This document shows, one piece after another, positions 7,976-40,059 of a stretch of 64,000 bases of DNA. The stretch's first letter is position 1, and the number at the start of each line of letters is the position of its first letter. This stretch comes from Ignavibacteriota bacterium (lineage in GTDB: Bacteria; Bacteroidota; Ignavibacteria; UBA10030; UBA6906), in NCBI GenBank assembly GCA_963801355.1, contig CAWDEM010000008.1:32001-96000 (forward strand), read 5' to 3'. The notes beneath the pieces are model-generated. The model ran no database searches, had not been told where the DNA came from, and saw nothing but the letters and a program-made list of their open reading frames with translations. A program made the translations under genes and the position numbers.

Positions 7976-8050
7976 GGACAATTCCTACACGATCTTTCAG
8001 TATTTGTCCTACAGATATTTGACAATTCTTAGCGTATATTGCAGTAAAGG

Positions 8051-8137
8051 TTACAGAGGTCGGATGTGGGACTCACGCGCCGGATCTGGAAGCGCACCTG
8101 ATCTTTGCCTCCATCTGCACTCCCTCCTCAAGCGCGG
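8051..8137 (+). ncRNA. Candidate structured 5' leader element, copy A, upstream of the hybrid sensor kinase
   Basis: 73 of 88 aligned positions are identical to the reverse complement of 39933-40020. It begins 10 nt after TATATT (8035-8040). Confidence 0.55.
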
Positions 8138-8197
8138 CATCAGTTCTCCACACAGCCAAGCAAAGCCTCGCATGTGCCAACTCCGAGGAGGGGGGGC

Positions 8198-11100
8198 ATG
8201 TCTGAAAGTATGTCTGCCATTAAGAGCTTCCTCGTGCTATCGCTTATCCTTGCCTTTATCCGCGCCCCCGTCCATCCGCAACAAGACAACCTGGTATTCG
8301 AACCGCTCTCTGTTGATCAGGGCATGCCGACCGCCGTGAGGTACATCCTTCAAGATAGAACCGGCTATTTATGGTTTGGTACGTATAGTGGCCTTCACCG
8401 GTTTGACGGGTACAGCTTCGTGTCTTACAGACACGATGCTGGTGATACTTCGAGTATAGTTGACAACAACGCCTCCACCCTGTATGAAGACAAAGCGGGA
8501 GTGCTGTGGATAGGGAGCCCGCTTGGGCTTGACAAATTCGATCGCACAATCGGTACGTTCTCGCATTATGTACCTGATCCAGCCGGCAGAGGAGAAGACC
8601 CAGGCAATAAGGTTTTGGCGATTCGTGAAGATAGAAATGGTGCTCTCTGGGTTGGGACTGAGGGAGGGCTATATCAATTCGATAGAGCAACAGGGAAATT
8701 CACGGCGCTGAGAATTGGTACCACTGATTCCGTTGGCATGTCTCATAACCCTGTGAACGCAATCCACGAGGATGAAGAAGGATCGCTATGGTTTGCGACT
8801 CGTGAAGGGCTTGACAAGTATGACATTGAAGCGGGGGAGCTTATTCGTTGTTGGAATGACTCAGGCAATCGGCAAGGGCGGTGGGTAGATACTTCAATGT
8901 ACTGTGTCAACGCACTCTGTGCCGATGAGACCGGGGTACTGTGGCTGGGGACGAATGGAGGATTGGTGGAGTTCAACCCCAGGACGGGGACCACTTCCCG
9001 TTATCGCTACAACCCCCCGAAAGGATACAATCAGGTCCACCAGATCTGCCAGGATGCCACAACCGGTTCCTTCTGGCTGGCGACCGGCAGATTGCTTCTC
9101 TCTTATGATAGACAGTCAGAAGCATTCACCAAATATGAGTATCGAACAAACGCCGTTTGTAACGAGCGATCCGGAACACTCTGGGCTGGGACAGATACCT
9201 ACATACAAAAGCTCAACCGGGCAAAACAGCCCTTCAAGAAATATCCAATGGATATCACGGCCCAGGTGATCAAGAGCGGAAAGGAAGGAACACTCTGGAT
9301 CAAAATACCTAACGGATATAGGAAGTTTGACATACGAAGAGAAGAATTCGTTCCGTTTTCGTTTGGCAAGAATATCGTGAAGTTTGTGTACAATTCGGGA
9401 GGTGAGGTGTTGCTCTACTGGGAAAACGATTTGCTGTCCACGGTAGATAGTTCTGGCGCAAGACATGACTGGGAGCCGTGCTCGCGATCGTTCGCGAATT
9501 CAGTTTCGGCCAGCTGGAAAGGGAGCAAAGGATACTGGTTCGGTACTCGCTTCGGCGGTCTCTTTCTTGTCGATTTCAAGAAGCCACGCTTCAGAGAAAT
9601 CAGGAATGTGAGGCTACATATAGATCGCATCTATGAAGATACCGGCGGTGCAGTTTGGGTTGCCACCGCAATGGGCAAGTTGTTCTGCTGTGACCAGGCA
9701 GAGGATACAATCATCGAATTCATCCCCGAGTCCGGAAAACCTTCAGCGGTAAGTGGGAGAAGGTTTAATGACGTTCTTGAGGATAGCAAGGGGGGGCTAT
9801 GGTTCGCTGCAAATGATGGCTTGTTAAAGCTCGACCGTTCAGCAAAGAAGTTCGTTCGCTATTTCGAAAAAGACGGTTTGCCCAGCAATGACGTACGAGG
9901 TGTTCTCGAAGATGATCATGGTTGTTTGTGGATTGCCACTAACAAGGGCATCTCGAAGTTCGATCCTGAGACAAATCACATCAAGAATTATGATGCTTCC
10001 TACGGTCTGGAACCGACAGCGGATGTGTTCCTTGGCAAAGGGTGCAAAACAAGAAACGGTGAAATGTATTTTGGAGGAGCGGGGGGGTTCACGCGTTTTC
10101 ATCCCGACAGTGTGAAGGACAATCCGTTTGTGCCGCCGGTTGTGATAACATCCTTCAGAAAATTCGACAAAGCGTATCCACTCCCGCATGATGTCCGCCT
10201 CTCGTACGATGAGAACTTCATTGCATTTGAGTTTGCAGCGCTGAGCTACATAAGTCCGGAAAGGAACCAGTATACCTACAAGATGGAGGGACTAGACAAG
10301 GATTGGGTGCATTCAGGGACACGGCGTTATGCGTCCTATCCGGGCCTGGAGCCCGGTGAATACACGTTCAGAGTAAGGGGGTCGAACAACGACGGGGTAT
10401 GGAATGAAGCCGGAACGTCGGTTTCGATCGTCATTTCTCCCCCCTGGTGGAAAACCACGTGGGCATATGCTCTCTACGCGCTGATGGTTCTTGGCACCCT
10501 CTATGTCACCTGGAAAATGCAGGTGAAGAGAATAGGAGAGAGGCAGGAATATGAGATGAGCAGGTTCGAAGCAGAGAAGCTGCGCGAGATGGATGGGATG
10601 AAATCGCGCTTCTTTGCGAACATTTCCCATGAGTTCAGAACGCCCCTCACGTTGATCCTGGGACCTGTCAAACAGATTATTGAGAGGACAGAGGAGGAAG
10701 ACACCAGAAGCGGTTTGCAGGCTGTTCACCGGAATGCGGACAGGCTTCTTGGGCTTGTGAACCAGCTGCTTGATCTCTCCAAGCTGGAGTCGGGCGCCAT
10801 GAAGCTGCGGACAGTCCGTCTGAATATCGTTCCACTGTTGAAAGCCCTGGTGCTGTCGTTCGCTTCGTATGCAGAACGGAAGCGAATCACGCTGACGTTC
10901 AACGTAAACGAAATGGAAATATCCACCTACGTAGACAGGGACAAGATCGAGAAGATCACCACCAACATACTTTCCAACGCGTTCAAATTCACTCCTGAAA
11001 GTGGAAGGATTGACGTGTCGGTGACGAGAACTGAAGACCGCGTGACCGTAGCTGTGGCCGATACGGGGATCGGTATTCCGGCCGACAAGATCTCCAGGAT

Positions 11101-12181
11101 CTTCGATCGATTCTATCAGGTGGATGGAAGCCATACAAGAGAACAGGAAGGTACCGGGATCGGCCTGTCATTGACAAAGGAACTGGTGGAGCTACACAAA
11201 GGGACAATTGAAGTCGAGAGCGCAGCAGGAAAGGGAACAACAGTTGTGATTCACCTTCCTCTGGGGAAAGAACACTTGAAGCCGGAAGAGATATGCGACG
11301 TTGAGGAGGAGGGGAAGAGCGAACTGATTGCCAGGCCGACTTCCTCTGTTCCGGAGGAGCTGCTCAACCATGGAGTGACGAAGGCCGCGAAGCCTGAGAT
11401 TGGCGTGTTCACGGAAACAGAAAAGCCACTGCTGCTCATCGTAGAAGACAATGCCGATGTCAGAGATTACATACAGAATGATCTCAAACGGGAGTATGGA
11501 ATTCTGGAGGCTGTGGATGGAGAGGACGGCTGGAGGAAATCCCTTGAGCATATGCCTGATGTCGTTGTCAGCGATGTCATGATGCCGAAAATGGATGGGT
11601 TCAGCCTCTGTGATCAAATCAAAAAGGACGAACGAACAAGCCACATACCTGTCATCCTGCTAACGGCGAAGGCGTCGCAGCAGGACAAGATCGAAGGGCT
11701 TGAGACAGGCGCAGATGATTACATCATGAAACCATTTGAACCGGCAGAACTCAATGCAAGAATACATAATCTCATCGAACAGAGGAAGAGAATTCATGAG
11801 CATTTCAGAAGGCACGGATTGTATGACATAGAGGATAAAAGCATCACGCCTGTTGATCAGAAATTCCTGCAGAACGCTCTCGCAGTCATCACCAGGCATA
11901 TGTCGGATCCCACATTCGGGGTGGAGTCACTGGCAGCGGAGTTGGCTGTGAGCAGATCGGTGCTTCTCAAGAAGATCGAGGCGTTGGTCGGCGAGCCGCC
12001 GAATGACCTGATCAAGAGGACTCGATTGACCACAGCTGCGAAGCTCATCGAACGCAGATTTGGCAATATGTCCGAAATCGCACTGGAAGTGGGCTTCAAT
12101 AACCCGTCCTATTTCGCCAAATCCTTCAAGAAGCAATTCGGCATCAACCCCTCGCGCTACCTCCGCAATCCCATCTCGTAG
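8198..12181 (+). CDS. Hybrid two-component system sensor-regulator (Reg_prop beta-propellers, Y_Y_Y, HisKA, HATPase, receiver, AraC HTH)
   Basis: QDRTGYLWFGT repeats; YASYPGLEPGEYTFRVRGSNNDG; NISHEFRTPLTLI; GTGIGLSL; SDVMMPKMDG; EVGFNNPSYFAKSFKKQFG. ATG 8198 follows GAGGAGG. Confidence 0.93.
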   Translation: MSESMSAIKSFLVLSLILAFIRAPVHPQQDNLVFEPLSVDQGMPTAVRYILQDRTGYLWFGTYSGLHRFDGYSFVSYRHDAGDTSSIVDNNASTLYEDKAGVLWIGSPLGLDKFDRTIGTFSHYVPDPAGRGEDPGNKVLAIREDRNGALWVGTEGGLYQFDRATGKFTALRIGTTDSVGMSHNPVNAIHEDEEGSLWFATREGLDKYDIEAGELIRCWNDSGNRQGRWVDTSMYCVNALCADETGVLWLGTNGGLVEFNPRTGTTSRYRYNPPKGYNQVHQICQDATTGSFWLATGRLLLSYDRQSEAFTKYEYRTNAVCNERSGTLWAGTDTYIQKLNRAKQPFKKYPMDITAQVIKSGKEGTLWIKIPNGYRKFDIRREEFVPFSFGKNIVKFVYNSGGEVLLYWENDLLSTVDSSGARHDWEPCSRSFANSVSASWKGSKGYWFGTRFGGLFLVDFKKPRFREIRNVRLHIDRIYEDTGGAVWVATAMGKLFCCDQAEDTIIEFIPESGKPSAVSGRRFNDVLEDSKGGLWFAANDGLLKLDRSAKKFVRYFEKDGLPSNDVRGVLEDDHGCLWIATNKGISKFDPETNHIKNYDASYGLEPTADVFLGKGCKTRNGEMYFGGAGGFTRFHPDSVKDNPFVPPVVITSFRKFDKAYPLPHDVRLSYDENFIAFEFAALSYISPERNQYTYKMEGLDKDWVHSGTRRYASYPGLEPGEYTFRVRGSNNDGVWNEAGTSVSIVISPPWWKTTWAYALYALMVLGTLYVTWKMQVKRIGERQEYEMSRFEAEKLREMDGMKSRFFANISHEFRTPLTLILGPVKQIIERTEEEDTRSGLQAVHRNADRLLGLVNQLLDLSKLESGAMKLRTVRLNIVPLLKALVLSFASYAERKRITLTFNVNEMEISTYVDRDKIEKITTNILSNAFKFTPESGRIDVSVTRTEDRVTVAVADTGIGIPADKISRIFDRFYQVDGSHTREQEGTGIGLSLTKELVELHKGTIEVESAAGKGTTVVIHLPLGKEHLKPEEICDVEEEGKSELIARPTSSVPEELLNHGVTKAAKPEIGVFTETEKPLLLIVEDNADVRDYIQNDLKREYGILEAVDGEDGWRKSLEHMPDVVVSDVMMPKMDGFSLCDQIKKDERTSHIPVILLTAKASQQDKIEGLETGADDYIMKPFEPAELNARIHNLIEQRKRIHEHFRRHGLYDIEDKSITPVDQKFLQNALAVITRHMSDPTFGVESLAAELAVSRSVLLKKIEALVGEPPNDLIKRTRLTTAAKLIERRFGNMSEIALEVGFNNPSYFAKSFKKQFGINPSRYLRNPIS

Positions 12182-12383
12182 TTGAAGGTGCGTATTCCCC
12201 CGGCAAGTCGTGAGACTTCGACGCAGCGCTTAACCCGCTCTCATCGAAGGAGTTATGGAAAATCGTCTTCCGTGAGAAATGCAAGATTGTCAGCATTTGA
12301 CGCGTCGTTGCTAGAAAACATCTGTTTCGGCCACTAATATTGCTTGGTTGACCCTACACACCTCAAGACAGATAGGAGGCCAT

Positions 12384-13601
12384 ATGTCAGGCGCAATCAG
12401 ATGTTGTCTCATTCTTGTCTCCTCAGTCCTGATCCTTCCTGACGCCCAGGCACAAAGTGGAGCCTGGACAAGGAAGAAAGATATGCCAACAGGACGGGCG
12501 GCGTCCTGTGCCGCTGTGGTCAATAACAAGATTTATGTGATCGGAGGAGTGGACAGAAATATTGTTGATTTGGCTGACTACGAAGTCTATGATCCTTCGG
12601 CGGACACCTGGGAGGTGAAAAAGCCACTACCGACACCCAGGGGTTTTGTTTCCGCGGCGGCAGTGAATGGCATCATCTATGCGATTGGCGGGCATTATAT
12701 GGGTGCTGGTACCTCAGAAGTCCTCGCATACGATCCCGTCGCCGACACCGGCTGGACTCCAAAAGCACAGTTGCTGTCGCCCAGGTTCGGTGCAGCCGCA
12801 GGCGTGGTTGATGGAATAATCTATAATGTTGGGGGGAATCATACGGAGCACAATTGCGAAGCGTACAGTCCGGCAACAGACACATGGACGAGGAAAACCG
12901 ATATCCCGGAGACCTTCGGAGGGATAGCGGTGGCTCCATGTGGTGGACTACTCTATGCAATTGGTGGAGGATTTAAGATAGTATTCCAAACAGTCTTCGC
13001 TTATGACGCGAAGACAGACGAATGGACAAAGAAGACAGACATGCCCACGCCACGAGGTTGGTCACACCCCGCCCCCGTGGTTGACGGGAGGATATATGTC
13101 GTGGGGGGGTATAAAAGCGTTTACGGTGAAGTGCTATCAAACGTGGAAGCGTATGATACGGTTTGGGGCTGGACAAAGGAACCGGACATGCCATTCATAC
13201 GCACCATGTTTGCAGCCGCCGTAGTGAACGGCAAGATCTACGTCATAGGTGGGACGACTGACTTCGGTTCGGTCGAGAAGGATGTCTGGGAGTACGATCC
13301 GTTGTTCACGTCGGTGGGGAGGTTTTCTGAATTGCCGGGGCATTTCGTTCTTGGACAGAACTACCCCAACCCCTTCAACCCGAGCACGACCATCAAGTAC
13401 GAGTTGCCCAAATCCTCTGAAGTGAGGTTGAGTGTGTACGACATGCTCTGCCGCGAGGTGTCCGTGTTGGTGAATGAGAGGAAGGATGCGGGAATACACG
13501 AAGTCAGGTTCGACGGTCACGGGCTTTCTAGTGGAGTGTATTTCTACCGGATGCATGCAGGGGATTTCGTGCAGACGCGCAAGTTGGTTCTTCTCCAATA
13601 G
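12384..13601 (+). CDS. Kelch-repeat beta-propeller protein with T9SS C-terminal domain
   Basis: Six IY(V/A)IGG...YDP...W Kelch repeats, a signal peptide and QNYPNPFNPSTTIKYELP. AGGAGG precedes ATG 12384. Confidence 0.9.
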   Translation: MSGAIRCCLILVSSVLILPDAQAQSGAWTRKKDMPTGRAASCAAVVNNKIYVIGGVDRNIVDLADYEVYDPSADTWEVKKPLPTPRGFVSAAAVNGIIYAIGGHYMGAGTSEVLAYDPVADTGWTPKAQLLSPRFGAAAGVVDGIIYNVGGNHTEHNCEAYSPATDTWTRKTDIPETFGGIAVAPCGGLLYAIGGGFKIVFQTVFAYDAKTDEWTKKTDMPTPRGWSHPAPVVDGRIYVVGGYKSVYGEVLSNVEAYDTVWGWTKEPDMPFIRTMFAAAVVNGKIYVIGGTTDFGSVEKDVWEYDPLFTSVGRFSELPGHFVLGQNYPNPFNPSTTIKYELPKSSEVRLSVYDMLCREVSVLVNERKDAGIHEVRFDGHGLSSGVYFYRMHAGDFVQTRKLVLLQ

Positions 13602-14430
13602 TAGCTGATTTTCCCGGGTTCATGTTGGCGTTTCTCTTGATGTGGAGTGTGCATTCTATCGCCTGTGGCGGCAACGCATCAACACTACAGGACGTAGGGC
13701 ATGGAGCACCCTGCCTCAAGGGTGGTATGGTGCCGGGGGCGGCCTCTACAAGATCCAAGAGACTGAAAGGAGGGATTTGAAATGAAGAATCTATGCTGGT
13801 TGATGCTCGTGCTCACATTGCCAACAACCTTATGGAGCCAGGAACGCATTGGAAGACATACGGTTGCTGAATGGCGCGACATCATTGACACGACTTGGGG
13901 AGCCGGCGAAACAACGGATGAGAAGCTTCGGATATTCGATCTCTTCTGGGATGCTGTTGATCAGCAATATGCGGGTTTCGGGGGGATAGAAGACAAATGG
14001 CAACAGATGAGAAGCTATCAGGACACCGTAGCCCTGGGAGTCAGCAGAGGGAGGTTTGCTGGGATTTGCGGCCATCTTGTGCAGTCTTTGCAGGACATCC
14101 ATGTGAACATGTGTGACGTTGGCGTTTCTTCAACACCGCTGAGCGCTGGTGCGCCGTTGCTCTATCCTATCGGGTTTGACATGCCGTCCCAGAACTGGGG
14201 AGCCATTCGCCACTTTGGGGCCTGCCTTACTCCGCTGCCGGACAGCACACTGCTCATCTATGCGGCGGTTGACAACCATCTGCTGGGTCTGGTTCGGGGC
14301 GATGTCGTACTGGGTTATGATGGGAGGTTGTGGAAAGATCTGATCCGGGAGTTGCTGAAGATTCAATTCCCACCCGCCTTGCATCCCACTATGTCAGGGT
14401 AAGCCAGGGCAGGTACGCACCAATTACTAG

Positions 14431-15768
14431 GGGCTAGGTTTGCAATAGAACCGTACACCTGTTAAAGAGTTGTGAGCCGTTCTTTTCTGTGGTAGTTTCA
14501 TGAGTCGCCACAGAAAACAAACCATACAAGATGAGGACGGCTCACCGGTGAAACAACAAGAAGCACAACAACTCTTTGCTGAAGTCCATCGGCTACACAA
14601 AGTCGGTCAGAACAACAGTCAGATTGCCGAGGCCCTTCGTTTGCGTCGGGCCACGGTAATCGAGTGGCTCGGTCGTGAAGCGTACATAGACAACCGCGGG
14701 TGGAAGCAAGGTCGAGCTCGTAAGCACACCGACCCCGCGATGGTCAAACGGATCTGCCGGCTCAAGCAGCGACGCGTGCATGACAACTATCTCGTCGGCA
14801 GCGAGTATGTGCAGATGGACTATTGTAAAAGCTACCCGAGTCAGGAAGTACCGTCGGTCTGGTTCATTGACAGCGTCGTGCGCAAAGCCGGCCTCCAGAC
14901 CAGGAAGCCGAAAACGAAACGACGGGGAGGCTCGGCCTATTTACTGTACCCAGTGGTGTCCATGCACCGCCTGGGACTGATCCAAGAGTCAGCGGACTTC
15001 ATCGGCAAAAAGGATTTGGACGGCTCTCCGCGTCCCGTGACGATTTTCTCCAGTTGCTATTACAGGCCGTTCAAAATGTATCAGATCCAGCGAACAGAGG
15101 CAGAAAAGGCCACTTTGGCAATCGAGATCCTCTGCCAACAGTGGACAGACTTTCCTGTTCCACACGTCCTGCGCATGGATAACGCGGGACCGTTCCGGGG
15201 CACGGGTACCTCACCTCGGCGTTTGGGAACCTTTGTCGTCTTCCTGCTGAACCTGGGCGTTGTCCCCTTGTTTGGATCGCCTTCCCGGCCATGGACTAAT
15301 GGTGCGGTCGAAGGTCACAACCGCGTGTTCACCGAGAAGGTCTGGCTGAGGAATCGCTTCAGCTCTCTGGAAGAAGTCGATCGAGAGACCAAGCGCTTCA
15401 ACGATGAAGGCCGTGAGTTCTTCCGCTTCCGATACCAATCGCTCGTCGATCGGTTCCGTGCGCGGCGTCTGGGACCAAAGCGGACAATCGACATCGAGCA
15501 CTTACGCACGCGGCGCAACAAGAAAATCAACTTCGTACGCTTCGTGGAACCGTCGCTCGACGAACCAAGACCACACATCGTAGTTATGAATGAGCGGGTC
15601 TTTCTGCCGGACCCATACGTCAACCAATTTGTCTTTGCAACATGGGATCTGGAGCAAGAACAGCTCTCTGTTGTCTCTGAATATCAAGGAACTTGTAGAC
15701 CTATCCTTCGTCGTTCCTTCAAAATCAATGAATAGAAGGGGTGTACGGTTTTATTGCAAAGTTAGCAA
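14431..15768 (+). mobile_element. Intact IS element with a CTAG target duplication and ~26-bp imperfect inverted repeats
   Basis: CTAG at 14427-14430 and 15769-15772. CTAGGTTTGCAATAGAACCGTACACC pairs with GGTGTACGGTTTTATTGCAAAGTTAG (3 mismatches). Confidence 0.9.
14500..15735 (+). CDS. DDE (rve/integrase core) transposase
   Basis: N-terminal HTH (SQIAEALRLRRATVIEWL); putative catalytic D (SADFIG), D (RMDNAGPF) and E (NGAVEGHNRVF). Confidence 0.88.
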   Translation: MSRHRKQTIQDEDGSPVKQQEAQQLFAEVHRLHKVGQNNSQIAEALRLRRATVIEWLGREAYIDNRGWKQGRARKHTDPAMVKRICRLKQRRVHDNYLVGSEYVQMDYCKSYPSQEVPSVWFIDSVVRKAGLQTRKPKTKRRGGSAYLLYPVVSMHRLGLIQESADFIGKKDLDGSPRPVTIFSSCYYRPFKMYQIQRTEAEKATLAIEILCQQWTDFPVPHVLRMDNAGPFRGTGTSPRRLGTFVVFLLNLGVVPLFGSPSRPWTNGAVEGHNRVFTEKVWLRNRFSSLEEVDRETKRFNDEGREFFRFRYQSLVDRFRARRLGPKRTIDIEHLRTRRNKKINFVRFVEPSLDEPRPHIVVMNERVFLPDPYVNQFVFATWDLEQEQLSVVSEYQGTCRPILRRSFKINE

Positions 15769-30843: not shown

Positions 30844-30913
30844 GACTCGATCTTTCGATCTTTGACAATCCGATCTTTGACACAGAACTTGGGTATCGAT
30901 TTCAATTGAAATT

Positions 30914-30951
30914 GGTTATTTTGCACACGGATGGAGTTATGAAGAGTGACG
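30914..30951 (+). repeat. Type B transposon-end-like repeat just upstream of the GH127-like gene
   Basis: GGTTATTTTGCACACGGATGGAGTTATGAAGAGTGACG. Confidence 0.65.
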
Positions 30952-30983
30952 CTTAAAACTGTGGCGATTCGGAGAGCCAAACT

Positions 30984-32798
30984 ATGAGCCTTTCGAGACG
31001 CGATTTCATCAAGGGCGCTTCATCAGTTGTCCTTTCCGGCACCGTGGCGCCGCTCTGGTCTAAAAATCACTCTCGCCCACAGCCACAGGAGAGCGGGGGA
31101 AAACTCGCGGCCAGGCCGGCTTCTTTTTCTCTCGAGAGTTATGCCGCAAACTCCCTCAACTACCTTGAACGTCTTGTCGATGCGGATGGACTTCCATATT
31201 TCAACGTGTTTTGGACTCAGCCCGCTGAAGCCGTCCACGACTGGCCGGATTTCGGCGACGTGATGACTCGGCAATGGCAGGGCGCCGTCATGCTCCGCCG
31301 GATGACCGGCCGGGAAGCCGCCACCGAAAAAGTCTGGCGGCGTAAGGTCCTATCTTTGATTGACCCCTCCGACGCACTCCTCCATCGCCCCACGACCACT
31401 TACAGCAAGCCGGTCGCGGATTGGGGAGACGCCTCCTTGACCCTTTATGCACTGGTTACGGCCGCCGTCGAGAGCGGCGATGATATCCTGCGGCAGGCGG
31501 CACAGAAGATGGCCGAGGGGATGTTGGATGGGCTGCGCTCCGGCCGCTTTTCTGGGAATGGCTTCGCGATCAAGAGTTTCATGGTCGCAGCGCGGCTGCT
31601 CGGATGCGAAGCGGGTTTGGAGGCGGCCCGGATTCTTGTCGACCGCTCGATCGTCCACGGCCACACTTTCACTCTGGACAACACGTTTGGCCTGTCTGGT
31701 CACATGCACAGCAACCTGAGGACAATGGTCGGGGCCGCCGACTATGCTTTGACAACCGGAGACCCCGTCCTGTACAGCCGTATCGACGCCCTTTATCGGT
31801 ACGTCAAGACGACCGGCACGAGCTTCGGCTTCCTGCCCGAGGTCATCGGACGACAGGGCGACATTATTGCCTGCGAGACGTGCGCCCTGATGGATTTCGC
31901 GGGCGTGGGTGTCACTCTCGCCAATCATGGACATCCTGAGTATTGGGGCGACATGGAGCGTCTGGTGCGGAACCATTATGTGGAGAGTCAGGTTCGGGAC
32001 GCCTCGTGGTTGGAGTCCGACACCGCTCGCCCTGACACGGCGCAGTTTACCTACCGCGGCATCGGCCAACGCATCCTGGGCGCCTGGGCCGGATGGAGCT
32101 CGCCGAATCATATCCTGGCCTGCCGCGAAACACTGAACGCGCACTGGGGCGGCCCGGAGCTGAAGAACAAGGTGCGGGTTCTCCAGAACTGCTGCGGGGG
32201 CTCTGGCCTGCATGGGCTTTTCATTTTATGGAAGAACGCCGCACGGTTCGAGGCCGGAACCCTGTCTGTCAATATGCATATTGACAAGAAACTGCCCCAG
32301 GCGGAGATTCGCAGCGAACAGCCATACCGCGGCCTCCTGCGAATCACCCTGAAAGAGGACAGCGGAGTGAGAGTTCGCGTCCCCGAGTTCACCAGTGCTG
32401 CCGAGATGAGAGTCCGTGTGAACGGGGCGGATGTGACAAACGCCGCGCCGGCGTTCGGGAATTATCGCGAACTGAGACAGCTTCGCGCCGGAGATCGGAT
32501 CGAAGTGGCATACCCTCTGCCGATCAGGACGGAAGATATCGTGGTCGGCAACCCGGGGTTTAGGCAATGGCGGTATCGAGCCACATGGAAGGGCGACACT
32601 GTGGTCCGCATGGAGCCGGTCGATAACGACGTAGAAACGGCTTACTCCGATTTTGACAAGGCTCAAGTGGGGGTTTTCTATGGCCGGAACGGCCCCGGCC
32701 AACTCTACCAGCGCGATCAAATGCTTCAGGAGGTTGAACCTTCCGAAGCGGAACTCCAGCTGGACGATGGCGGGCCAGATTTCTGGAAAATCAAGTAG
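30984..32798 (+). CDS. Tat-exported GH127/GH146-like (beta-L-arabinofuranosidase-like) protein
   Basis: SRRDFIK signal; ACETCA and QNCCGGSG Cys/Glu motifs; C-terminal VRVPE...GDRIEV beta domain. Confidence 0.75.
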   Translation: MSLSRRDFIKGASSVVLSGTVAPLWSKNHSRPQPQESGGKLAARPASFSLESYAANSLNYLERLVDADGLPYFNVFWTQPAEAVHDWPDFGDVMTRQWQGAVMLRRMTGREAATEKVWRRKVLSLIDPSDALLHRPTTTYSKPVADWGDASLTLYALVTAAVESGDDILRQAAQKMAEGMLDGLRSGRFSGNGFAIKSFMVAARLLGCEAGLEAARILVDRSIVHGHTFTLDNTFGLSGHMHSNLRTMVGAADYALTTGDPVLYSRIDALYRYVKTTGTSFGFLPEVIGRQGDIIACETCALMDFAGVGVTLANHGHPEYWGDMERLVRNHYVESQVRDASWLESDTARPDTAQFTYRGIGQRILGAWAGWSSPNHILACRETLNAHWGGPELKNKVRVLQNCCGGSGLHGLFILWKNAARFEAGTLSVNMHIDKKLPQAEIRSEQPYRGLLRITLKEDSGVRVRVPEFTSAAEMRVRVNGADVTNAAPAFGNYRELRQLRAGDRIEVAYPLPIRTEDIVVGNPGFRQWRYRATWKGDTVVRMEPVDNDVETAYSDFDKAQVGVFYGRNGPGQLYQRDQMLQEVEPSEAELQLDDGGPDFWKIK

Positions 32799-32810
32799 TC
32801 CGAGACGCTA

Positions 32811-32836
32811 CGGCCCGATGGATTTCCACCGGGCCG
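32811..32836. terminator. Hairpin between convergent genes
   Basis: CGGCCCGATGG-ATTT-CCACCGGGCCG. Confidence 0.45.
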
Positions 32837-32858
32837 CAGCGCTGATTGTCCTCAAGCC

Positions 32859-35066
32859 TCAGCGCAGCAAGATCAACTTCTTCGTATCCACAAAGGCGCC
32901 TGCTGTCATGCGGCACAGATACACGCCGCTCGCGAGGCCTGTTGCGTCAAACGTCACTTGATGGGTCCCTGGTTCTTTCCTCTCATCGACCAGCACCGCT
33001 ACTTCCCGGCCGAGAAGGTCGTAGACGGCAAGCCGCACCTCGCTGACCACTGGTAACAGGTAGCCGACAACTGTTTTCGGATTAAACGGATTGGGATAGT
33101 TTTGCGAAAGTGCGTATTCTGACGGTACAACTGTTCCCCCGGGTTCTACCCCCACGCTTGTTGTCTGGAGGGTATATTCCTCCACCGTTGAACAAGGCAC
33201 CCAAGGGTAGCCCTGCGCCACCGACCCCCCAATGGCATAGACCTTACCGTTCACCACGCTGGTGGAAAGCAAGCCCCGTGCCGTCGGCATGTCGGCTAGC
33301 CCAGTCCAGAAGTCCGTCGTCGGGCTATACACTTCAACGGTCGAAAGAACAGGGGCGCTCACTCCACTCCCTGAATAGCCCCCAAAGGCATAGATCTTCC
33401 CGTTTACCACGCTGGTGGATAATCCTTTTCTTGCTGTTGGCATGGGGGCTTTCGCAGTCCATTTATCCGTGGCCGGGTCGTACGCTTCCACGACGCCAAT
33501 GCCTGCCACATCCATAGTACCAGAGCCACCCCCGAGTGCATAGATCTTCCCGTCCAGCACGCTGGTGGAAAGCCCGCCTCTTACTGTCGGCATCGGGGCT
33601 TTCGTGGTCCATTTATCCGTGGTCGGGTCGAATTCTTCCACGGTTGACACGTCCCACGTACCAACGCGACCACCCCCAATGGCATAGATCCTTCCATTCA
33701 CCACGCTGCTGGATAAACTGTGTCTTGCGGTTGCCATGGGGGCTTTCGTGGTCCACGTATTCGTCGCCGGGTCGTACGCTTCTACAGTCGCAACTTGTTG
33801 GTTCGCCTGTGGTGCACCCCCGATGGCATAAATCTTCCCATCAACCACGCTAGTGGAATGAAAGAACCTGGCGGTTGGCATCGGGGCTTTCGTGGTCCAT
33901 ACATCCCTGGCCGGGTCGTACTCTTCCACCGTAGAAAGAGTCGTCATACTCGTACCAGCTGCACCGCCGATGGCATAAATCTTCCCATTCACCTCGCTGG
34001 TGGATAAACCGTATCTTGCGGTAGGCATTTTGGTCTTCGTTGTCCAGAAGTCTTCTTTGACCAAATATTCCTCCACCGTGGAAAACATCGTAGGCTGAGG
34101 GTATGGATTCGACCCACCTATCGCATAGATCTTATTATGGATCGAACCCACAAAGAGCCCAAGCCGTTCCTTCCGCATTGGAGATTTTGTGGTCCATGTA
34201 TTTTTGGCTGGATCGTAGACTTCATTGATTGTACACGCACCCGTAGTTGAACAACCGCCAATGGCATAGATTGTTCCATCCACCACACAGGTACCTAGAC
34301 CGAAGCGCTGCGTCGGCATGTCAGATACGGCTCTCCAAGAATTCGTTACCGGATTGTACATCTCAACGACTTTGTAGGGCTGATAGCTGGCATCACATCC
34401 TCCAATGGCATAGATCTTCCCATTCACGACGGAGGCAGACAAGCCAAATCGAGCTGTCGGCATGCTGGCCTTCGACGTCCACGATTGCGTATAAGGGTTA
34501 TAGGCCATTACCGTTTGACTCGGTGGACCTGGCGCTACGGTACATCCACCAATGAGATAGATCTGGCTATCGACAACTGCTATGCCACACCACGCATTGA
34601 TATATGGCATATCAGCTTTCTGCGTCCAAGTGCCCATCGTTGGATCATATACATAGACCCTCTTCGTAGCCGTCGACTGCACAGTGGGGTTGATACCTCC
34701 AAATACGTACATCTTGCCGTTGAATGTGCAGGCTGCAGGAATACAGAGTCTGGATGGCAGAGTATCTTTCTTGGTCCACGTATCACCCGTTGGATCATAC
34801 ATTTCCAAAGCTGGTGTCAGGTCTGTTTCATTCAGAGCTCCGCCGACAACGTATATTTTTCCATCAATGACACATCCACCAGGCAGTGTTCTTGCGGTTG
34901 GCATGCTGGCTTTCGTTGTCCAGGTGTCGACTGTGGTAATCATGTGCGACAACGGCCGTCTCCAATTGTCGCCGGTAGGAGTCCCGGCATAGAGATACGG
35001 GCCGAGGACGGCGAGAGTGCACAGCAGAATAACGGCAACTGCGAGACATACGAACCAGGTTCTCAT
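32859..35066 (-). CDS. Double Kelch beta-propeller protein (about 12 repeats) with T9SS C-terminal domain
   Basis: Repeated MPTAR...VVNGKIYAIGG...YDP...WT; QNYPNPFNPKT. Confidence 0.92.
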   Translation of the reverse strand: MRTWFVCLAVAVILLCTLAVLGPYLYAGTPTGDNWRRPLSHMITTVDTWTTKASMPTARTLPGGCVIDGKIYVVGGALNETDLTPALEMYDPTGDTWTKKDTLPSRLCIPAACTFNGKMYVFGGINPTVQSTATKRVYVYDPTMGTWTQKADMPYINAWCGIAVVDSQIYLIGGCTVAPGPPSQTVMAYNPYTQSWTSKASMPTARFGLSASVVNGKIYAIGGCDASYQPYKVVEMYNPVTNSWRAVSDMPTQRFGLGTCVVDGTIYAIGGCSTTGACTINEVYDPAKNTWTTKSPMRKERLGLFVGSIHNKIYAIGGSNPYPQPTMFSTVEEYLVKEDFWTTKTKMPTARYGLSTSEVNGKIYAIGGAAGTSMTTLSTVEEYDPARDVWTTKAPMPTARFFHSTSVVDGKIYAIGGAPQANQQVATVEAYDPATNTWTTKAPMATARHSLSSSVVNGRIYAIGGGRVGTWDVSTVEEFDPTTDKWTTKAPMPTVRGGLSTSVLDGKIYALGGGSGTMDVAGIGVVEAYDPATDKWTAKAPMPTARKGLSTSVVNGKIYAFGGYSGSGVSAPVLSTVEVYSPTTDFWTGLADMPTARGLLSTSVVNGKVYAIGGSVAQGYPWVPCSTVEEYTLQTTSVGVEPGGTVVPSEYALSQNYPNPFNPKTVVGYLLPVVSEVRLAVYDLLGREVAVLVDERKEPGTHQVTFDATGLASGVYLCRMTAGAFVDTKKLILLR

Positions 35067-35198
35067 CTTGCCCTCCTCTCAATGCGACGACTGTAGGAAT
35101 TTCGGTGGCTCTTCGGCTCCCACATCGAGCCATTGAGTTTGATGCCGACAAAAAATTAGCGTACTTCGAGGCTCGCCAGCCAAGAGGGCAAGTCCGGG

Positions 35199-35768
35199 CT
35201 AGTGAGATTGTATGTATCCTTCGTATTCGCCATAGGGCGGATCTGCTGACGCATGATATATCCCCGTCATGACGAACTTCATTCCGTCAATTGTTCCGCC
35301 AGTCCCATGACCAATTATCTTCAAATTGTGCGTGAACTCTTCCGGACCCGTCATGGTCCTGTATCCTTCCCACGAGCCCGCCCATACTCCGCCGATGGCC
35401 GGCCTCAACGTGAATTTCCCATGCAGCGGGCCTTCCCCCGTAGTGAGACTCCATGAACAATCGCAAATGTTGTGCAATAAGCCCGCCATGCGTGGGTCGC
35501 TAGCTAACTCCTCGACTTCAACCTCCATCCCGCTGATAATCAACCTGTTCCCCACAAACTTCCAATCGCCGGGGCTAATTTCAACGGCCGTGACCTTATT
35601 ATCAATTGCTGTGAAGTCTGTCCGCTCCACCTTTTCCAGGGGAGCAGGCGCGCTTTGAAGTCCGGCCTGGTCAGTCGGCCCAGCAACAGGAGCCGAACTA
35701 TCCGAACATCCCAACATCACAAACGCCATACTTGCCATCAGGAAGAAAGCAATAGACAGAGCTTTCAT
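35199..35768 (-). CDS. Hypothetical lipoprotein
   Basis: MKALSIAFFLMASMAFVMLGC lipobox; AGGG-type ribosome-binding site upstream. Confidence 0.75.
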   Translation of the reverse strand: MKALSIAFFLMASMAFVMLGCSDSSAPVAGPTDQAGLQSAPAPLEKVERTDFTAIDNKVTAVEISPGDWKFVGNRLIISGMEVEVEELASDPRMAGLLHNICDCSWSLTTGEGPLHGKFTLRPAIGGVWAGSWEGYRTMTGPEEFTHNLKIIGHGTGGTIDGMKFVMTGIYHASADPPYGEYEGYIQSH

Positions 35769-36017
35769 GATTTTGCCCTTTCTGATAATGAGTGAGTAGA
35801 AGTACAAGCAACACGTGGACGTGAGACTTCGCCGTGGCTCCATGCTGTGCGATTGGTGGAGCCCAATATAATGGCAAAGATCAACTAGGGAAATCGGTCT
35901 TTTTCGGTAATCTCTTGGAGAAACGCACGCGTAGGGGGAGAAAGATCAGCAGAAGTGCGTACAGTAGCAGCTGAATTAATCGCTCACGTGCTGGAGCAAT
36001 GGAGCAGAGAGAGCAGC

Positions 36018-36644
36018 CTATTTCCGTAAGAACTTCAGCACAGCCTGGGTGCGGGACCGGACGTGAAGCTTCTGGTAAATGTTTCTGAGGTGGGTTCGAA
36101 CTGTCTTGACACTGATGAAGAACTGGTCGGCAATTTCCTGGTCTTGGTATCCCTTGGCAAGGAACGAGAGAATCTCCATCTCCCGCTCGGTGAGATTCTC
36201 CGTCTCTTTGGAAGACTTACCCATCTCCTGAAAAGCCTGCACCACTTTGCGGGCGATTTGGTCAGACATCGGGGAACCGCCTTCATGGATATCCTTGATC
36301 GCCCCGAGCAATTCTGCCGCCGGTGTCCTTTTGAGGATATACCCTGTAGCTCCGGCAACAATGGACTTGAACACCTTCTCATCATCCTCAAAGACGGTCA
36401 GCATCATGACCTGAAGATTCGGGTTTTTCTCCTTGAGTTTCTCTACACACTCGATGCCAGACATCCTTGGGAGCTGGATGTCCATCAACACGACATCGGG
36501 GCTGTATGACGGGAGATGACGCAGGGCTTCCTCCGCGCTCTCGTAGGCCGCCGTGCATTGAAATCCCTCCGAGCCGTCAATGAGTATTGCCAGACCCTCC
36601 CGAATCTTCTTGTTGTCTTCAACGATTGCGACTTTAATAGGCAT
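36018..36644 (-). CDS. NarL/LuxR-family response regulator
   Basis: IVEDN, LMDIQLP, GATGYILK; LTEREMEIL...TVRTHLRNIYQKL. Confidence 0.95.
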   Translation of the reverse strand: MPIKVAIVEDNKKIREGLAILIDGSEGFQCTAAYESAEEALRHLPSYSPDVVLMDIQLPRMSGIECVEKLKEKNPNLQVMMLTVFEDDEKVFKSIVAGATGYILKRTPAAELLGAIKDIHEGGSPMSDQIARKVVQAFQEMGKSSKETENLTEREMEILSFLAKGYQDQEIADQFFISVKTVRTHLRNIYQKLHVRSRTQAVLKFLRK

Positions 36645-36675
36645 GGATTGAGTGTACCTACGTACACTGTCAGAT

Positions 36676-39600
36676 TCAATACTTAGAATTAGGTAAATCG
36701 GTCGGCCTATGGCTCCTCAGTGTCGCCTGAATTGCAAGCAGCGTTCCACAACCGGGCGTGGAATCTATCCTGAGAGTCGCTCCCACATCTGCGATCCGCT
36801 TGTTCATGCTCCTCAAGCCGTTTCCTGTCCCGAGTCGATCATTGAGAACAAACCCTTTCCCATTATCGGAGACAAGAATTTCCAGGTTGTCTTCCATACA
36901 CTTCACAGCGATCGAGACTTCCGTGGCCGCAGAGTGTTTGACGATATTGTGAAGAGCTTCCTTGACTGCAAGGAAGAGATTCCGGCGTAGCTCAGCGCGG
37001 AGTGGGAGGTCGGGAACAACGTCAGGGGCTGCAAACCTGCAGGATATGTTGGCCAGGCCCAGGTATTTGACCGCATCCCTTCGCACGCGAGCGACGAAGC
37101 TGTCGAGTGTGTCGTTGCTCGGATTCAGTGCCCAGACAATCTCGCTGACGCTGTCGATCACCTCCGCTGCGCGTTCGGAGATCTGCTGAATATACATTTC
37201 CGCTTCCTCGGGCTTCTTTCTCGCCAACTCACCCAGTATGGAAATCTCTGATAAACTGGACCCAACCTCATCGTGCATGTCTTGAGAAATGCGGGCACGT
37301 TCGTTCTCCAACGCTCGCGCCAACTCCAACCGTTCGATTCTTCTCATCAGCTTTCTCTTCTCAACGTACCGGACTGTTTCAGCGGCAATGCCAAGCAGAA
37401 GCATCATCGCAGGTATCCGGAACCACCATGTTACCCAGAACGGCGGCGAGATAATGACAGCAATGGAAGCCCCTTCTTCGTTCCAGACACCATCGTTGTT
37501 GGATCCCTTAACGCGAAAAACATATTCTCCGCCATCGAGGTTTGTGTACGTTGCCGATCGGCGCGTACCGCAGTACACCCACTCTCTGTCAAATCCCTCA
37601 AGCATGTAAGCATACTCGTTCTTTTCGGGGCGTAAAAAGTCCAATGCAGCAAACTCAAAGGAGAAGACGTTTTCCTTGTACGATACTTCGATCGCACCGG
37701 ACCGGCCGATGGCTTGACGGATGTCCACCGGATTGTCGAATTTCCTGAAGCCTGTGATGACAATCGGTGGAACGTGAGTGTTCTCCTTGACGCTATCAGG
37801 GTGGAACATGGTGAAACCACTGGTGCCGCCGAAGCAAAGTTCGCCACTTCTGAGTTTGGCATGGCAACCATAAGAGAACCGGATTCCCAGCAAACCGTCT
37901 CCGGCATCATAATTGTTGAAATGTTTTGTTCGAGGATCAAATCGGGAAAGACCCATGCCGGTGGCGATCCAAAACCGTCCATGGTCGTCTTCTTCCATAC
38001 ACCAAACAAGATCATTCGCCAGGCCGTCCCTGGTCGTGAAGTGAACGAATGTTCTGGTTTTCGGCTCAAAGCTCCAGAGACCGCCCTGAGTTGCCAGCCA
38101 GACTGTGCCGGAGTGATCTTGGTGGGTCTGCATGATATTATTGCTTCGACTCGTGTATTGCGTGTCGGGGAAGAATTGTTGGAATTCCCCACGCTTCATG
38201 TCAAATCTCGTGAACCCATGATCAGTTGCGATCCATAGGAGTTCTTCGTCCCGACGGGAAGTATTTACCTCGAAATCCCAGACTACATTACCGATCATGC
38301 CATTAGGATTATCGGGATCCCGAAAGAAATGTGTAAGCTGATCCGTTCGGGGATTGAATCTCTTCAATCCCGCACTATATGTGCCAAACCACAACATTCC
38401 TGATCCATCCTCATAGATTGTGCGGATGCGTGTGTCACTTATGGTCTTCGGATAGTGCTGAAATGTCTGACTTCCAGGGGGAAGCTTGTCAAGACTTCCT
38501 CCCAACGTGCCGATCCACAGCGAACCCGATCCACTCTCACAGAGACCAGTGACGTAATCACTGCTAATGCTATTAAGGTCTCTCGGACTATGCAGGAAAT
38601 GTTCGAACACTGCGGTCGCTGGATCGAAGCGGTTAAGTCCACCGCCTAAAGTGGCGACCCATAGATTCCCCTTGCGATCCTCCTTGATCGATCCAATATA
38701 ATTGTTACTCAGGCTCCGCCGATCGTCAGGGTCATGAGAGAAGTTTCGAAAGATGTTCATTTCCGCAACATACCTGTCAAGGCCAACTGCAGTTCCGACC
38801 CACACCGTCCCGGATTGATCTTCACAAAGAGAAGTGACGTTATCACTGCTCAGGGTTACGGGGTCCTTAGGGTTGTTCACATGATGCTCGAACTTCCTTT
38901 CCTGCGAGCGCCGTCTATCGAGGCCTCCGTTAAATGTCGCGATCCACAGATCGCCTGATCGATCAACAAGCAGCTGATTCACGGCGTTGTTGCTCAGGCT
39001 TGTGGGATCCCATGGCCGGTGGACGAATGTCTCGAATGTCTTCGTCATCGGATCGAACTTCTTGACGCCGGCAACGAACGTGCCAACCCAGATATTCCCG
39101 GAATGATCTTCACAAAGAGTCCTCACTCCGTCGGGATCAAGAATGCTTGTATCTGTGCGAGCACTTTGATAGCAATCCCATTCGTTCGTGACAGGATCAA
39201 TCCTGTGCAACCAACCACCTCGTGTGCCAATCCAGAGAACCCCTTTGTGATCCCGAATAATGGCGCGCACCCTGTTGTCGCGCAACGTCTTTTTCCTTAC
39301 CGTCAGCCGACTCGTATCAAGCACGAGCCGCGTGAAAGTATTGTCATGTGCGTTGAACTTGTTCAGGCCAGCACTCCTCGTTCCAACCCACAACTCACCC
39401 TTGCCATCCTCACCTATGGCAGTGATGGAATCGGAACTGATGCTGTGCTCGTCATGAGCACTGTGGACATATCGCGTGAACTTCTCCGTCTTCGAATCGA
39501 ATCTGTTCAACCCCGCATATGTCCCGACCCACAAATCCCCATAGTGATCCTCAAAGAGGGCTCTCACGTCGTTGTTAATCAAACTCGCTTCATCTTCGGG

Positions 39601-39858
39601 GTCGTTACGATACACCTGGAAGCGGTATCCGTCATAGCGGCCAAGACCATCGACTGTGGCAACCCAGAGATACCCGTCGGTGTCCAGGAGAATCCGATTC
39701 ACAGCACTGTTCGGAAGTCCCTGCTCGATGCCAATATGCTGAAATCGAATTGTCTCTTTGGGGGCTGAGAATACAACGCAATGCAGACTGAACAGAAGGA
39801 CACAAACATATTGGAGCGAGTTGAGCTTCAACCAGCCTATTGACGGAGGAAACAACAT
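36676..39858 (-). CDS. Sensor histidine kinase with Reg_prop beta-propellers, Y_Y_Y and HisKA_3/HATPase domains
   Basis: ED..G.LWVGT repeats; ATYTNLDGGEYVFRVKGSNNDG; ERARISQDMHDEVG; KEALHNIVKHS; GNGLRSM. The start is taken at ATG 39858 because the ORF's 5' extension overlaps the promoter and IS remnant. Confidence 0.9.
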   Translation of the reverse strand: MLFPPSIGWLKLNSLQYVCVLLFSLHCVVFSAPKETIRFQHIGIEQGLPNSAVNRILLDTDGYLWVATVDGLGRYDGYRFQVYRNDPEDEASLINNDVRALFEDHYGDLWVGTYAGLNRFDSKTEKFTRYVHSAHDEHSISSDSITAIGEDGKGELWVGTRSAGLNKFNAHDNTFTRLVLDTSRLTVRKKTLRDNRVRAIIRDHKGVLWIGTRGGWLHRIDPVTNEWDCYQSARTDTSILDPDGVRTLCEDHSGNIWVGTFVAGVKKFDPMTKTFETFVHRPWDPTSLSNNAVNQLLVDRSGDLWIATFNGGLDRRRSQERKFEHHVNNPKDPVTLSSDNVTSLCEDQSGTVWVGTAVGLDRYVAEMNIFRNFSHDPDDRRSLSNNYIGSIKEDRKGNLWVATLGGGLNRFDPATAVFEHFLHSPRDLNSISSDYVTGLCESGSGSLWIGTLGGSLDKLPPGSQTFQHYPKTISDTRIRTIYEDGSGMLWFGTYSAGLKRFNPRTDQLTHFFRDPDNPNGMIGNVVWDFEVNTSRRDEELLWIATDHGFTRFDMKRGEFQQFFPDTQYTSRSNNIMQTHQDHSGTVWLATQGGLWSFEPKTRTFVHFTTRDGLANDLVWCMEEDDHGRFWIATGMGLSRFDPRTKHFNNYDAGDGLLGIRFSYGCHAKLRSGELCFGGTSGFTMFHPDSVKENTHVPPIVITGFRKFDNPVDIRQAIGRSGAIEVSYKENVFSFEFAALDFLRPEKNEYAYMLEGFDREWVYCGTRRSATYTNLDGGEYVFRVKGSNNDGVWNEEGASIAVIISPPFWVTWWFRIPAMMLLLGIAAETVRYVEKRKLMRRIERLELARALENERARISQDMHDEVGSSLSEISILGELARKKPEEAEMYIQQISERAAEVIDSVSEIVWALNPSNDTLDSFVARVRRDAVKYLGLANISCRFAAPDVVPDLPLRAELRRNLFLAVKEALHNIVKHSAATEVSIAVKCMEDNLEILVSDNGKGFVLNDRLGTGNGLRSMNKRIADVGATLRIDSTPGCGTLLAIQATLRSHRPTDLPNSKY

Positions 39859-39932
39859 GATGTGCCTTCTTCCGGAAACCGGGATGTCGCAGACAAGGAG
39901 AGCAAGGGATTCAATCCAGCCGACAACTGTAC

Positions 39933-40020
39933 CCGCGTTCGAAGAGGGAGTGCAGATGGAGTCAAAGTGCAGGTGCGCTTCCAGGCCTGACGCGGGAGAC
40001 CCCGCATTCGACCTCTGTAA
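39933..40020 (-). ncRNA. Candidate structured 5' leader element, copy B
   Basis: About 83% identical to 8051-8137; GUCGAA/UUUGAC and UGCGGG/CCUGCA pairings. Confidence 0.55.
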
Positions 40021-40030
40021 GCTTGGCGGA

Positions 40031-40059
40031 AATATACGGCAGGCACTGCTAAATGTCCA
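40031..40059 (-). promoter_or_regulatory. Sigma70-type promoter for the kinase-regulator operon
   Basis: TGGACA-17 bp-TATATT on the minus strand. Confidence 0.65.

Follow-up and report, generated by a model that had tools for sequence, protein, structure and literature searches.

Two sensor loci with Kelch cargo

The window analysed here is a 64-kb stretch of DNA from an Ignavibacteriota bacterium, lying on contig C8 of a 4.8-Mb, 100%-complete genome (G000). It contains two loci in which a membrane sensor of the Reg_prop/Y_Y_Y type, with its regulator, lies upstream of a gene for a Kelch-propeller protein that carries a type IX secretion system (T9SS) sorting domain. A Pfam scan over 30 open reading frames (ORFs) of the window confirmed, each in its place, all the genes that a first-pass annotation of this DNA had named in the two loci.

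Locus 1 lies on the forward strand and opens with a hybrid two-component system (HTCS) protein (8198..12181, +) that combines on one polypeptide Reg_prop (Pfam E-value 9e-38), Y_Y_Y (2.8e-19), HisKA (9.6e-17), HATPase_c (2.7e-32), receiver (Response_reg, 4.5e-26) and AraC-type helix-turn-helix (HTH_18, 1.1e-16) domains, the full domain set of a Bacteroides-type HTCS. It is followed by the Kelch gene K1 (12384..13601, +). Locus 2 lies on the reverse strand and begins with a sensor histidine kinase (HK; 36676..39858, −) containing Reg_prop propellers, Y_Y_Y, HisKA_3 (2.5e-10) and HATPase_c (1.3e-10). The adjoining response regulator (36018..36644, −) contains a receiver (Response_reg, 5.7e-27) and a GerE/LuxR-type helix-turn-helix domain (2e-20), so that the two genes form a NarL/LuxR-type pair by their Pfam domains; they are followed by a lipoprotein gene, p214 (35199..35768, −), and by the double-Kelch gene K2 (32859..35066, −). 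The best NCBIfam models for the regulator were MctR, MadR and NarL, all scoring under their cut-offs. Orthologs of the kinase (82% identity) and of K2 (86-89% identity, with identical neighbours) are found in the related genome G068. Residues 40-165 of the kinase also matched the NCBIfam PorZ model (E 4.6e-35, 121 bits against a cut-off of 260), a match that reflects a shared propeller fold and not family membership.

K1 and K2 are 45% identical. Both scored above the cut-offs of Por_Secre_tail (36.3 and 34.1 bits, cut-off 27; Pfam) and TIGR04183 (38.2 and 39.3 bits, cut-off 23; NCBIfam), which makes them T9SS type A cargo, and both have a hydrophobic N-terminus, as read by eye, that would serve as a signal peptide. 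Kelch_1 matched six stretches in K1 and 11 in K2, so that each has the six repeats of a Kelch propeller; K2 comprises two propellers. The K1 sequence matches the Kelch domains of KEAP1 and KLHL proteins in the PDB (E about 1e-39). The NanM/YjhT sialic-acid mutarotase was ruled out as an identity for these proteins, with 58.8 bits for K1 against a cut-off of 416 (NF010730) and 56.1 against 256 (TIGR03547), and 114.8 and 101.5 bits for K2 against the same two cut-offs.

Across the genome, Kelch_1 matched five ORFs. Three of them are Kelch-T9SS proteins and all three lie behind signalling systems, namely K1, K2 and a third protein, K3 (locus L020), which is preceded by a Ser/Thr kinase-TPR protein and a GAF-sigma-54 activator. 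The paralogous locus L019 (G000:C8:1131000-1147000) supplies the fourth, a T9SS protein with a beta-helix body, encoded after a split AraC-type sensor; its sorting domain is related to that of K1, and its N-terminus corresponds to the first 68 residues of K1 at 74% identity (signal peptide and first Kelch blade) before the beta-helix body begins. Within this locus the T9SS protein lies at 5300-7177 (−) and a promoter motif like that of K1 at 7715-7744 (−), and the cargo body appears to have been swapped under an unchanged sensor and promoter. The fifth ORF (L021) has neither a sorting domain nor a sensor nearby. Beyond the family, only 6 of 196 class genomes yielded close relatives of the Kelch part of K1.

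The p214 protein has a lipobox, read as LGC, and no Pfam match. Its AlphaFold2 model is a predicted eight-stranded beta-barrel (pLDDT 90) whose closest structure is 2q03, an uncharacterised Shewanella protein (Z 15.0, rmsd 2.1 Å, 125 residues); 2ooj (Shewanella, DUF3224; Z 12.4) and then allene-oxide-cyclase, dirigent and Diels-Alderase barrels follow. None of 52 relatives of p214 matched any Pfam family, DUF3224 included, at E up to 0.01. A full profile scan recovered 395 relatives at E up to 1e-3 among 1.84 billion representatives, against three proteins from a word-based search. In the family p214 occurs in 10 of 61 genomes; it adjoins K2, is near K3, and recurs in five modules of the relatives G055 and G057 beside Kelch or sensor genes. 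A 206-aa protein encoded after K1 (13782-14402) was considered as a further relative and ruled out (BLASTP E 2.2).

The first-pass annotation had described 8035-40059 as one module repeated twice. Since ~19 kb of unrelated genes separate the loci, including an IS481-like transposase and several other T9SS cargo genes, the span consists instead of two separate inverted modules. The two sensors share 31% identity and fall into different clades (see below), for which reason the loci are not a recent duplicate of one unit and the idea of a simple duplication was abandoned. The transposase gene (14500-15735, +; NCBIfam E 4.5e-15, under the cut-off) begins ~900 nt 3' of K1, and the downstream border of locus 1 may be disturbed for that reason.

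Y_Y_Y sensors lie next to T9SS cargo genes

The same annotation had seen no susC or susD genes in the window, and this held: among the 30 scanned ORFs, Pfam found no pair of a SusC-like TonB transporter and a SusD-like protein, the pair by which a polysaccharide utilisation locus (PUL) is recognised. Moreover, SusD_RagB and SusD-like_3 gave 0 matches across the complete genome in a search whose Bacteroides control was positive. As the genome has no SusD-family gene, its Y_Y_Y sensors cannot serve classical PULs.

To describe what the sensors adjoin, we used 3745 ORF models from a longest-ORF heuristic and 20000 gene-label permutations. Our own profile counted 202 proteins with the C-terminal sorting domain (CTD) among these models; a separate genome listing of sorting-domain proteins gave at least 150 matches among 204 candidates. 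The genome encodes 16 Y_Y_Y sensors. A CTD gene was the next co-directional gene after four of them (0.53 expected, P = 0.0016), was among the next two after seven (0.79 expected) and among the next three after eight (0.95 expected); neither of the last two counts was reached in any permutation. The adjacency of sensors and cargo in this genome is not chance. With 8 of the 16 sensors placed before T9SS cargo and no SusC/SusD-type loci, these results suggest that the sensors would control pieces of the secretome and not import loci.

For the comparison with relatives, K2 was searched against 61 family genomes and 19 regions were fetched around matches to its Kelch part; four further regions were fetched, two of them with a Kelch gene, giving a set of 21 regions from 14 genomes with 23 Kelch-T9SS genes. 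The neighbourhood statistics rest on these searches and regions, and not on two locus searches, of which that with full-length K2 returned almost exclusively sorting-domain matches and that with the Kelch part of K1 returned four loci. For ten of the 23 genes, a Y_Y_Y sensor or its regulator is encoded no more than three genes upstream. Loci of the AraC type were found in G068 (two), G055 (three) and G057 (one), and loci of the HK/LuxR type in G068 (the K2 ortholog), G013 and G004, as well as in G009, where the LuxR regulator alone is visible before the contig ends. Another two of the 23 are downstream of a sigma-54 activator with a Ser/Thr kinase (G055, G057). The Kelch genes linked to a sensor or regulator come from six genera of the family and three regulator types, and this genomic context supports the adjacency of sensor and Kelch gene noted in the first pass.

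The densest example of the module is a 30-kb island in G055 (L127/L128; G055:C22:1-32000), which holds a sigma-54 activator, a Ser/Thr kinase, three Kelch-T9SS genes, three p214 genes and two leader-bearing AraC-type sensors.

Candidate promoters between regulator and Kelch genes

Between the HTCS gene and K1 we located a candidate promoter (12312..12340, +) made of TAGAAAAC, a 15-nt spacer and TAATAT, with a GTCAG/GCTAG repeat 21 nt apart. In the window, the pattern TAGAAARC-N14-19-TAnnAT, accompanied by GGTAG-like repeats at a 21-nt spacing, has a single occurrence, before K1; TAGAAARC-N14-19-TAnnAT is also present directly after the sensor gene and before the next gene in L135, L137 and L019. 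The typical binding sites of AraC-family activators are direct repeats with a spacing of two helical turns and an overlap with the −35 region.

Downstream of the LuxR-type regulator gene of locus 2, a candidate promoter (35865..35913, −) reads AGATTACC ... GACCGATTTCCC ... TATATT. The arrangement AGATTACC ... GAC(C/T)(G/A)ATTTC ... −10 box was read by eye in all four HK/LuxR loci, that is, the window locus, L125, L129 and L130. K3 has a candidate sigma-54-type promoter, TGGCACTCTTTTTGG, 66 nt before its start codon, which is kept in G055; TGGCAC-N5-TTGG lies before both K3 and its G055 counterpart. Sigma-54 promoters have −24/−12 elements of the GG-N10-GC type. Judged against this consensus, the −12 element of K3 is TTGG and not TTGC; a Sigma54_activat protein is encoded upstream. 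Each wiring type has its own conserved motif before the Kelch gene, motifs that we regard as leads and not as proof. We found no convincing intrinsic terminators between the module genes.

Sensor heads and their outputs

We built a quick IQ-TREE phylogeny of 22 periplasmic sensor domains, 16 from the genome itself and six from relatives, leaving out three further relatives that lacked an intact ORF. The clade of the K1 sensor (100% SH-aLRT) also holds the split L019 sensor, a third leader-bearing sensor (c7) that lies before a GH130-like T9SS protein, and four AraC-type sensors from G055, G068 and G057. Besides the K1 sensor and c7, the AraC-type sensors of this clade number five, and they precede Kelch genes or a Kelch remnant. 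The HisKA_3 kinase of G013, with a LuxR regulator and then a Kelch gene downstream, nests inside this AraC-type clade with 100% SH-aLRT, and we conclude from its position that one sensor-head lineage occurs with two output types, the Kelch cargo being kept. The K2 kinase and its G068 ortholog lie in a separate clade. The first-pass annotation had proposed interchangeable output modules, and the G013 kinase supports this, with the Ser/Thr kinase and sigma-54 activator as a third wiring.

A conserved leader precedes both sensors and many other genes

Both sensor genes are preceded by a common leader of ~115 nt, at 8037..8150 (+) in locus 1 and at 39920..40034 (−) in locus 2. The regions 7980-8210 (+) and 40080-39850 (−) align with 78% mean column identity, and two invariant blocks of 18 and 15 nt are each present in exactly two places in the window, where shuffles predict 0.06 and 0.10. 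A covariance model (R1) built from 24 leader copies scored the two at 99 and 113.8 bits, so that the shared leader noticed in the first pass is real. Its parts are a helix P1 (GGUC/GACC), a hairpin P2 (GCGG/CCGC) whose tip varies in length with the stem kept, the invariant block CUGGAAGCGCACCUG and a CU-rich box, CUGCACUCCCUCCUC, which is invariant and complementary to Shine-Dalgarno sequences.

The leader begins at the −10 box of a sigma-70-like promoter, which at locus 2 (40031..40059, −) reads TGGACA, 17 nt, TATATT (10 of 12 consensus positions) and in relatives TTGACA-N17-TAnnnT; for this reason the leader is probably transcribed. The starts chosen for the sensor genes, 8198 and 39858, are sensible because the longer ORFs (8105.. 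and 40299..) would cross leader and promoter. The upstream control region of locus 1 (7982..8040, +), as read from the sequence, has TTCCTACA at 7982-7989, TCCTACAGA at ~8007-8015 over the −35 position and a −10-like TATATT at 8035-8040, a layout that recurs before other type A leaders (defined below). Upstream of several type A copies are arrays of TTCCTACA with a spacing of ~22-23 nt, in part arranged as the palindrome TGTAGGAA-NN-TTCCTACA. Of the nine TTCCTACA clusters in the genome, six adjoin leader copies; as a single site the 8-mer shows no genome-wide enrichment (88 found against 101 expected) and the clusters alone are informative. Directly upstream of the locus 2 leader promoter lie three direct repeats of GGCTTRCCTTTTT with a period of 16-17 nt (40070..40119, −), the only three matches of this pattern in the genome, which form a possible operator. 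The TTCCTACA arrays and the GGCTTRCCTTTTT repeats look like operators for further regulators. Arrays of three to four TTCCTACA sites at 22-23 nt were also noted away from detected leaders, at C4:701763-701816, C6:14531-14564 and C8:1203580-1203648 of G000. The leader block TGGAAGCGCACCTGCA was considered as a sigma-54 promoter and dropped, the −12 GC being lost in most long copies.

BLAST retrieved 10-11 leader copies in the genome and the covariance model 17, all co-directional with the downstream ORF. Ten are strong type A copies, with E at most 2e-23. They precede three Y_Y_Y sensors (those of K1, of K2 and of the GH130-like cargo), Ser/Thr kinases, a BNR-T9SS and an S41-T9SS protein, two DUF4440 proteins, a peptidase M2 and one protein of unknown kind. 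Six are of a divergent type B, with a longer P1 (GGUCUC/GAGACC) and a GCAAG/CUUGC hairpin, and all six lie before T9SS cargo genes (G000:C4:1573987, C4:896588, C4:315647, C4:824591, C8:1118496 and C8:248926). The last, c11, is truncated, has no CU box and lies ahead of a peptidase M6 gene. Type B copies and c11 scored E between 6e-7 and 6e-4.

In the family, the leader model matched 25 of 61 genomes. A Pfam census of the first ORF downstream at 28 family loci gave Reg_prop (two), BNR/Sortilin (three), protein kinase (two), WD40 (two), DUF3160 (two), beta-lactamase-type (two), TPR (two), FG-GAP (one) and 3-keto-disaccharide hydrolase (one), with no family for 11. Where upstream DNA was available, the leader stood directly before the sensor in all six AraC-type Kelch modules (window locus 1, three in G055, and one each in G068 and G057) and in one of four HK/LuxR-type modules, that of window locus 2. 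Thus the first-pass view of the leader as a part of the module does not hold, given 17 copies before many gene types and its presence in one HK/LuxR module of four. Rfam 15 had no match at gathering score in the window and none at E up to 5 in 39800-40120. We describe the element as a candidate new leader RNA that is real but not specific to the module.

Some leader copies are followed by another conserved 5' element, GATGGCT..AGCCATCGAGCC ... TAGAGCC.ACCC.GACGAC, which also lies before the locus 2 kinase ortholog of G068. Its occurrences are L016 ~360-480, L014 ~12300-12420 (−), L017 ~5990-6080 and L125 ~11540-11700.

Discussion

We consider it reasonably probable that these loci follow a family-wide design, in which a Reg_prop/Y_Y_Y membrane sensor controls a promoter just 3' of its own regulator gene and this promoter drives a T9SS-exported Kelch protein. 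At locus 1, the AraC-type hybrid protein would activate the K1 promoter through the 21-nt-spaced direct repeats overlapping the −35 region. At locus 2, the HisKA_3 kinase would phosphorylate the LuxR-type regulator, which would then activate the promoter of p214 and the double-Kelch K2. K3, at another place in the genome, would be wired to the Ser/Thr kinase, the sigma-54 activator and the sigma-54-type promoter. The common leader, carried by the sensor genes and many cargo genes, could add one further, global control. The Kelch proteins most likely bind an extracellular polymer or protein at the cell surface. Of the sense-and-secrete system put forward in the first-pass annotation, the adjacency stands, and we add to it a candidate promoter for each type of regulator; the switching-on of the Kelch genes by a ligand, through pairing of each regulator with the adjacent promoter, we infer.

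In gut Bacteroides, Reg_prop/Y_Y_Y sensors are the textbook regulators of sugar-import loci, and HTCS proteins such as BT4663 control PULs. The locus 1 protein has an identical one-protein architecture, and here too the sensor adjoins its presumed target genes. In contrast, the presumed target beside it is one Kelch propeller exported by the T9SS and not a set of enzymes with an importer, there is no adjacent SusC/SusD pair and no SusD genome-wide, the host is of the Ignavibacteria type, and the sensor head is also found on a HisKA_3 kinase whose LuxR regulator is a protein of its own. In the best-supported model, individual secreted Kelch propellers would each have a dedicated sensor, with signalling outputs and even cargo bodies being exchangeable; the design would follow the sensor-and-locus logic of Bacteroides but is not a PUL. 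Background on the HTCS and PULs of Bacteroides is given in PMC3243724 and PMC3404733. Locus 2 shares its kinase and regulator domain types with NarX/NarL, but its input is a propeller/Y_Y_Y head of ~950 residues instead of a four-helix nitrate sensor, and its presumed target is a lipoprotein and a secreted Kelch protein. As described in PMC7712824, PorXY-SigP of Porphyromonas gingivalis is likewise a two-component system tied to type IX secretion; as presented there, it controls the genes of the secretion machine, whereas here dedicated sensors appear to control single cargo genes. In the partial texts that our literature search covered, no paper dealt with Reg_prop/Y_Y_Y-type sensors controlling T9SS Kelch cargo.

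Neither adjacency nor motifs amount to proof of regulation, and several further points weigh against the proposed design. Among the sequencing runs listed for 32859-40100, none was of RNA. The gene models are longest ORFs, and for the relatives' regions the annotation came from tblastn against a reference set taken from the genome studied here, and not from Pfam. We spotted the promoter motifs by eye and then searched with patterns that had themselves been derived from the loci in question, the sensor tree comes from a quick search, and the linked loci are not independent, falling perhaps into three or four orthologous groups. In addition, T9SS cargo is clumped, which permutation of gene labels controls only in part. 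A coincidental neighbourhood, with the sensors regulating distant targets or themselves and the Kelch genes sitting in islands dense in T9SS cargo, would agree with the frequency of the sorting domain (9 of the 30 window ORFs with Por_Secre_tail by Pfam, 202 of the 3745 ORF models), with the sharing of the leader by many unrelated genes, and with the 11 of 23 Kelch-T9SS genes in relatives that have neither system in the fetched DNA, some of which lie on 3-6 kb contigs. Coincidence is nonetheless quite improbable in our judgement, when the permutation test gave eight sensors against 0.95 expected, the adjacency is kept in six genera and three regulator types, and conserved promoter motifs, a different one for each regulator type, are placed precisely between the gene of the regulator and that of the Kelch protein. 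We also considered that the Kelch protein is the input, a surface propeller that captures or processes a ligand and passes a fragment to the periplasmic sensor, like the surface glycan-binding proteins of Bacteroides, with the pair regulating other genes. The modules contain no enzyme or transporter, their conserved partners being the sensor, the Kelch protein and in some loci p214; moreover, the Kelch domains resemble the ligand- and protein-binding propellers of KEAP1 and KLHL and score far under the NanM cut-offs. However, a separate conserved promoter with regulator-type motifs before the Kelch gene points to regulated and not to constitutive expression, and the L019 locus, where the Kelch body gave way to a beta-helix with sensor and promoter kept, fits a swappable output better than a co-receptor. 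We therefore think the input role unlikely, with the reservation that a feed-forward loop would allow both roles.

As for the leader, its most likely role, to judge from the sequence, is that of a cis-acting RNA in which the CU-rich box could mask the ribosome-binding site (RBS). Riboswitch expression platforms and the ROSE and fourU thermometers mask the Shine-Dalgarno sequence. Like them, the element combines a conserved 5' part of predicted structure with a CU-rich box complementary to the RBS; unlike them, it has no Rfam match, its regulon comprises at least 17 genes of mixed function and its mechanism is a prediction. In the leader alignment 95.3% of the cells are paired, and five pairs show double changes, a result that 0 of 500 shuffles reach. 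In the centroid fold of copy 1, CUCCCUCCUC pairs with GAGGAGGGGG at the start codon, joining the CU box to the Shine-Dalgarno stretch at 8185-8194; the fold of copy 2 has P1 and P2, with the CU box paired near the RBS. When the CU-box/RBS duplex was ranked among ~92 windows, it was within the best seven in 17 of 38 copies, with guessed start codons, as any CU-rich box would be. On the other side, the copy 2 duplex ranked only 26th of 92, and some genes downstream of a leader have no clear Shine-Dalgarno sequence.

The leader may instead work as DNA, as a promoter/operator cassette that is bound by one global transcription factor and was possibly spread by recombination or as a mobile promoter. 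Its primary sequence is very highly conserved and its covariation thin (six cells in the five pairs), and the folding energy of the whole leader is no better than that of shuffles (z = +1.49 and −0.01 for the two copies). The upstream parts vary, with TTCCTACA arrays in some copies and a plain TTGACA-N17-TATATT in others, and in G068 the proximal untranslated region of the locus 2 kinase ortholog is the same but a different leader precedes it, as if cassettes had been exchanged. Against a role as DNA, the conserved block lies downstream of the −10 box and would be transcribed, 17 of 17 copies point toward the downstream ORF, the P2 stem is kept despite tip insertions of variable length, and the one-sided changes are mostly to G-U and thus fit the transcribed strand only. 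We regard the DNA cassette as doubtful. Returning to the leader as RNA, we tentatively propose a wider scheme, in which it would be a new cis-regulatory RNA family, confined to this family of Ignavibacteria, whose conserved P1/P2 fold binds a global signal (a metabolite or protein) and whose CU box masks or frees the RBS, jointly gating the sensors and much of the T9SS secretome. Control would then have two tiers, the second being ligand-specific sensors that each release one Kelch propeller.

In this SusD-less lineage, half of the Reg_prop/Y_Y_Y sensors are wired to T9SS cargo, and one cargo family, the Kelch propellers, lies behind three signalling outputs. If the wiring is functional, the sensor head would be a general-purpose input of extracellular signals for control of the secretome, and the loci would offer two-gene systems of a sensor and a secreted protein for finding sensor ligands and the function of bacterial Kelch proteins. 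The leader, absent from Rfam, is a candidate for a new regulatory RNA that would connect about 17 genes in each genome.

Other genes in the window

The window also contains a kdp locus at 49861-58332, complete and ordinary, encoding KdpA, a P-type ATPase (presumably KdpB), KdpC, the KdpD kinase and an OmpR-type regulator.

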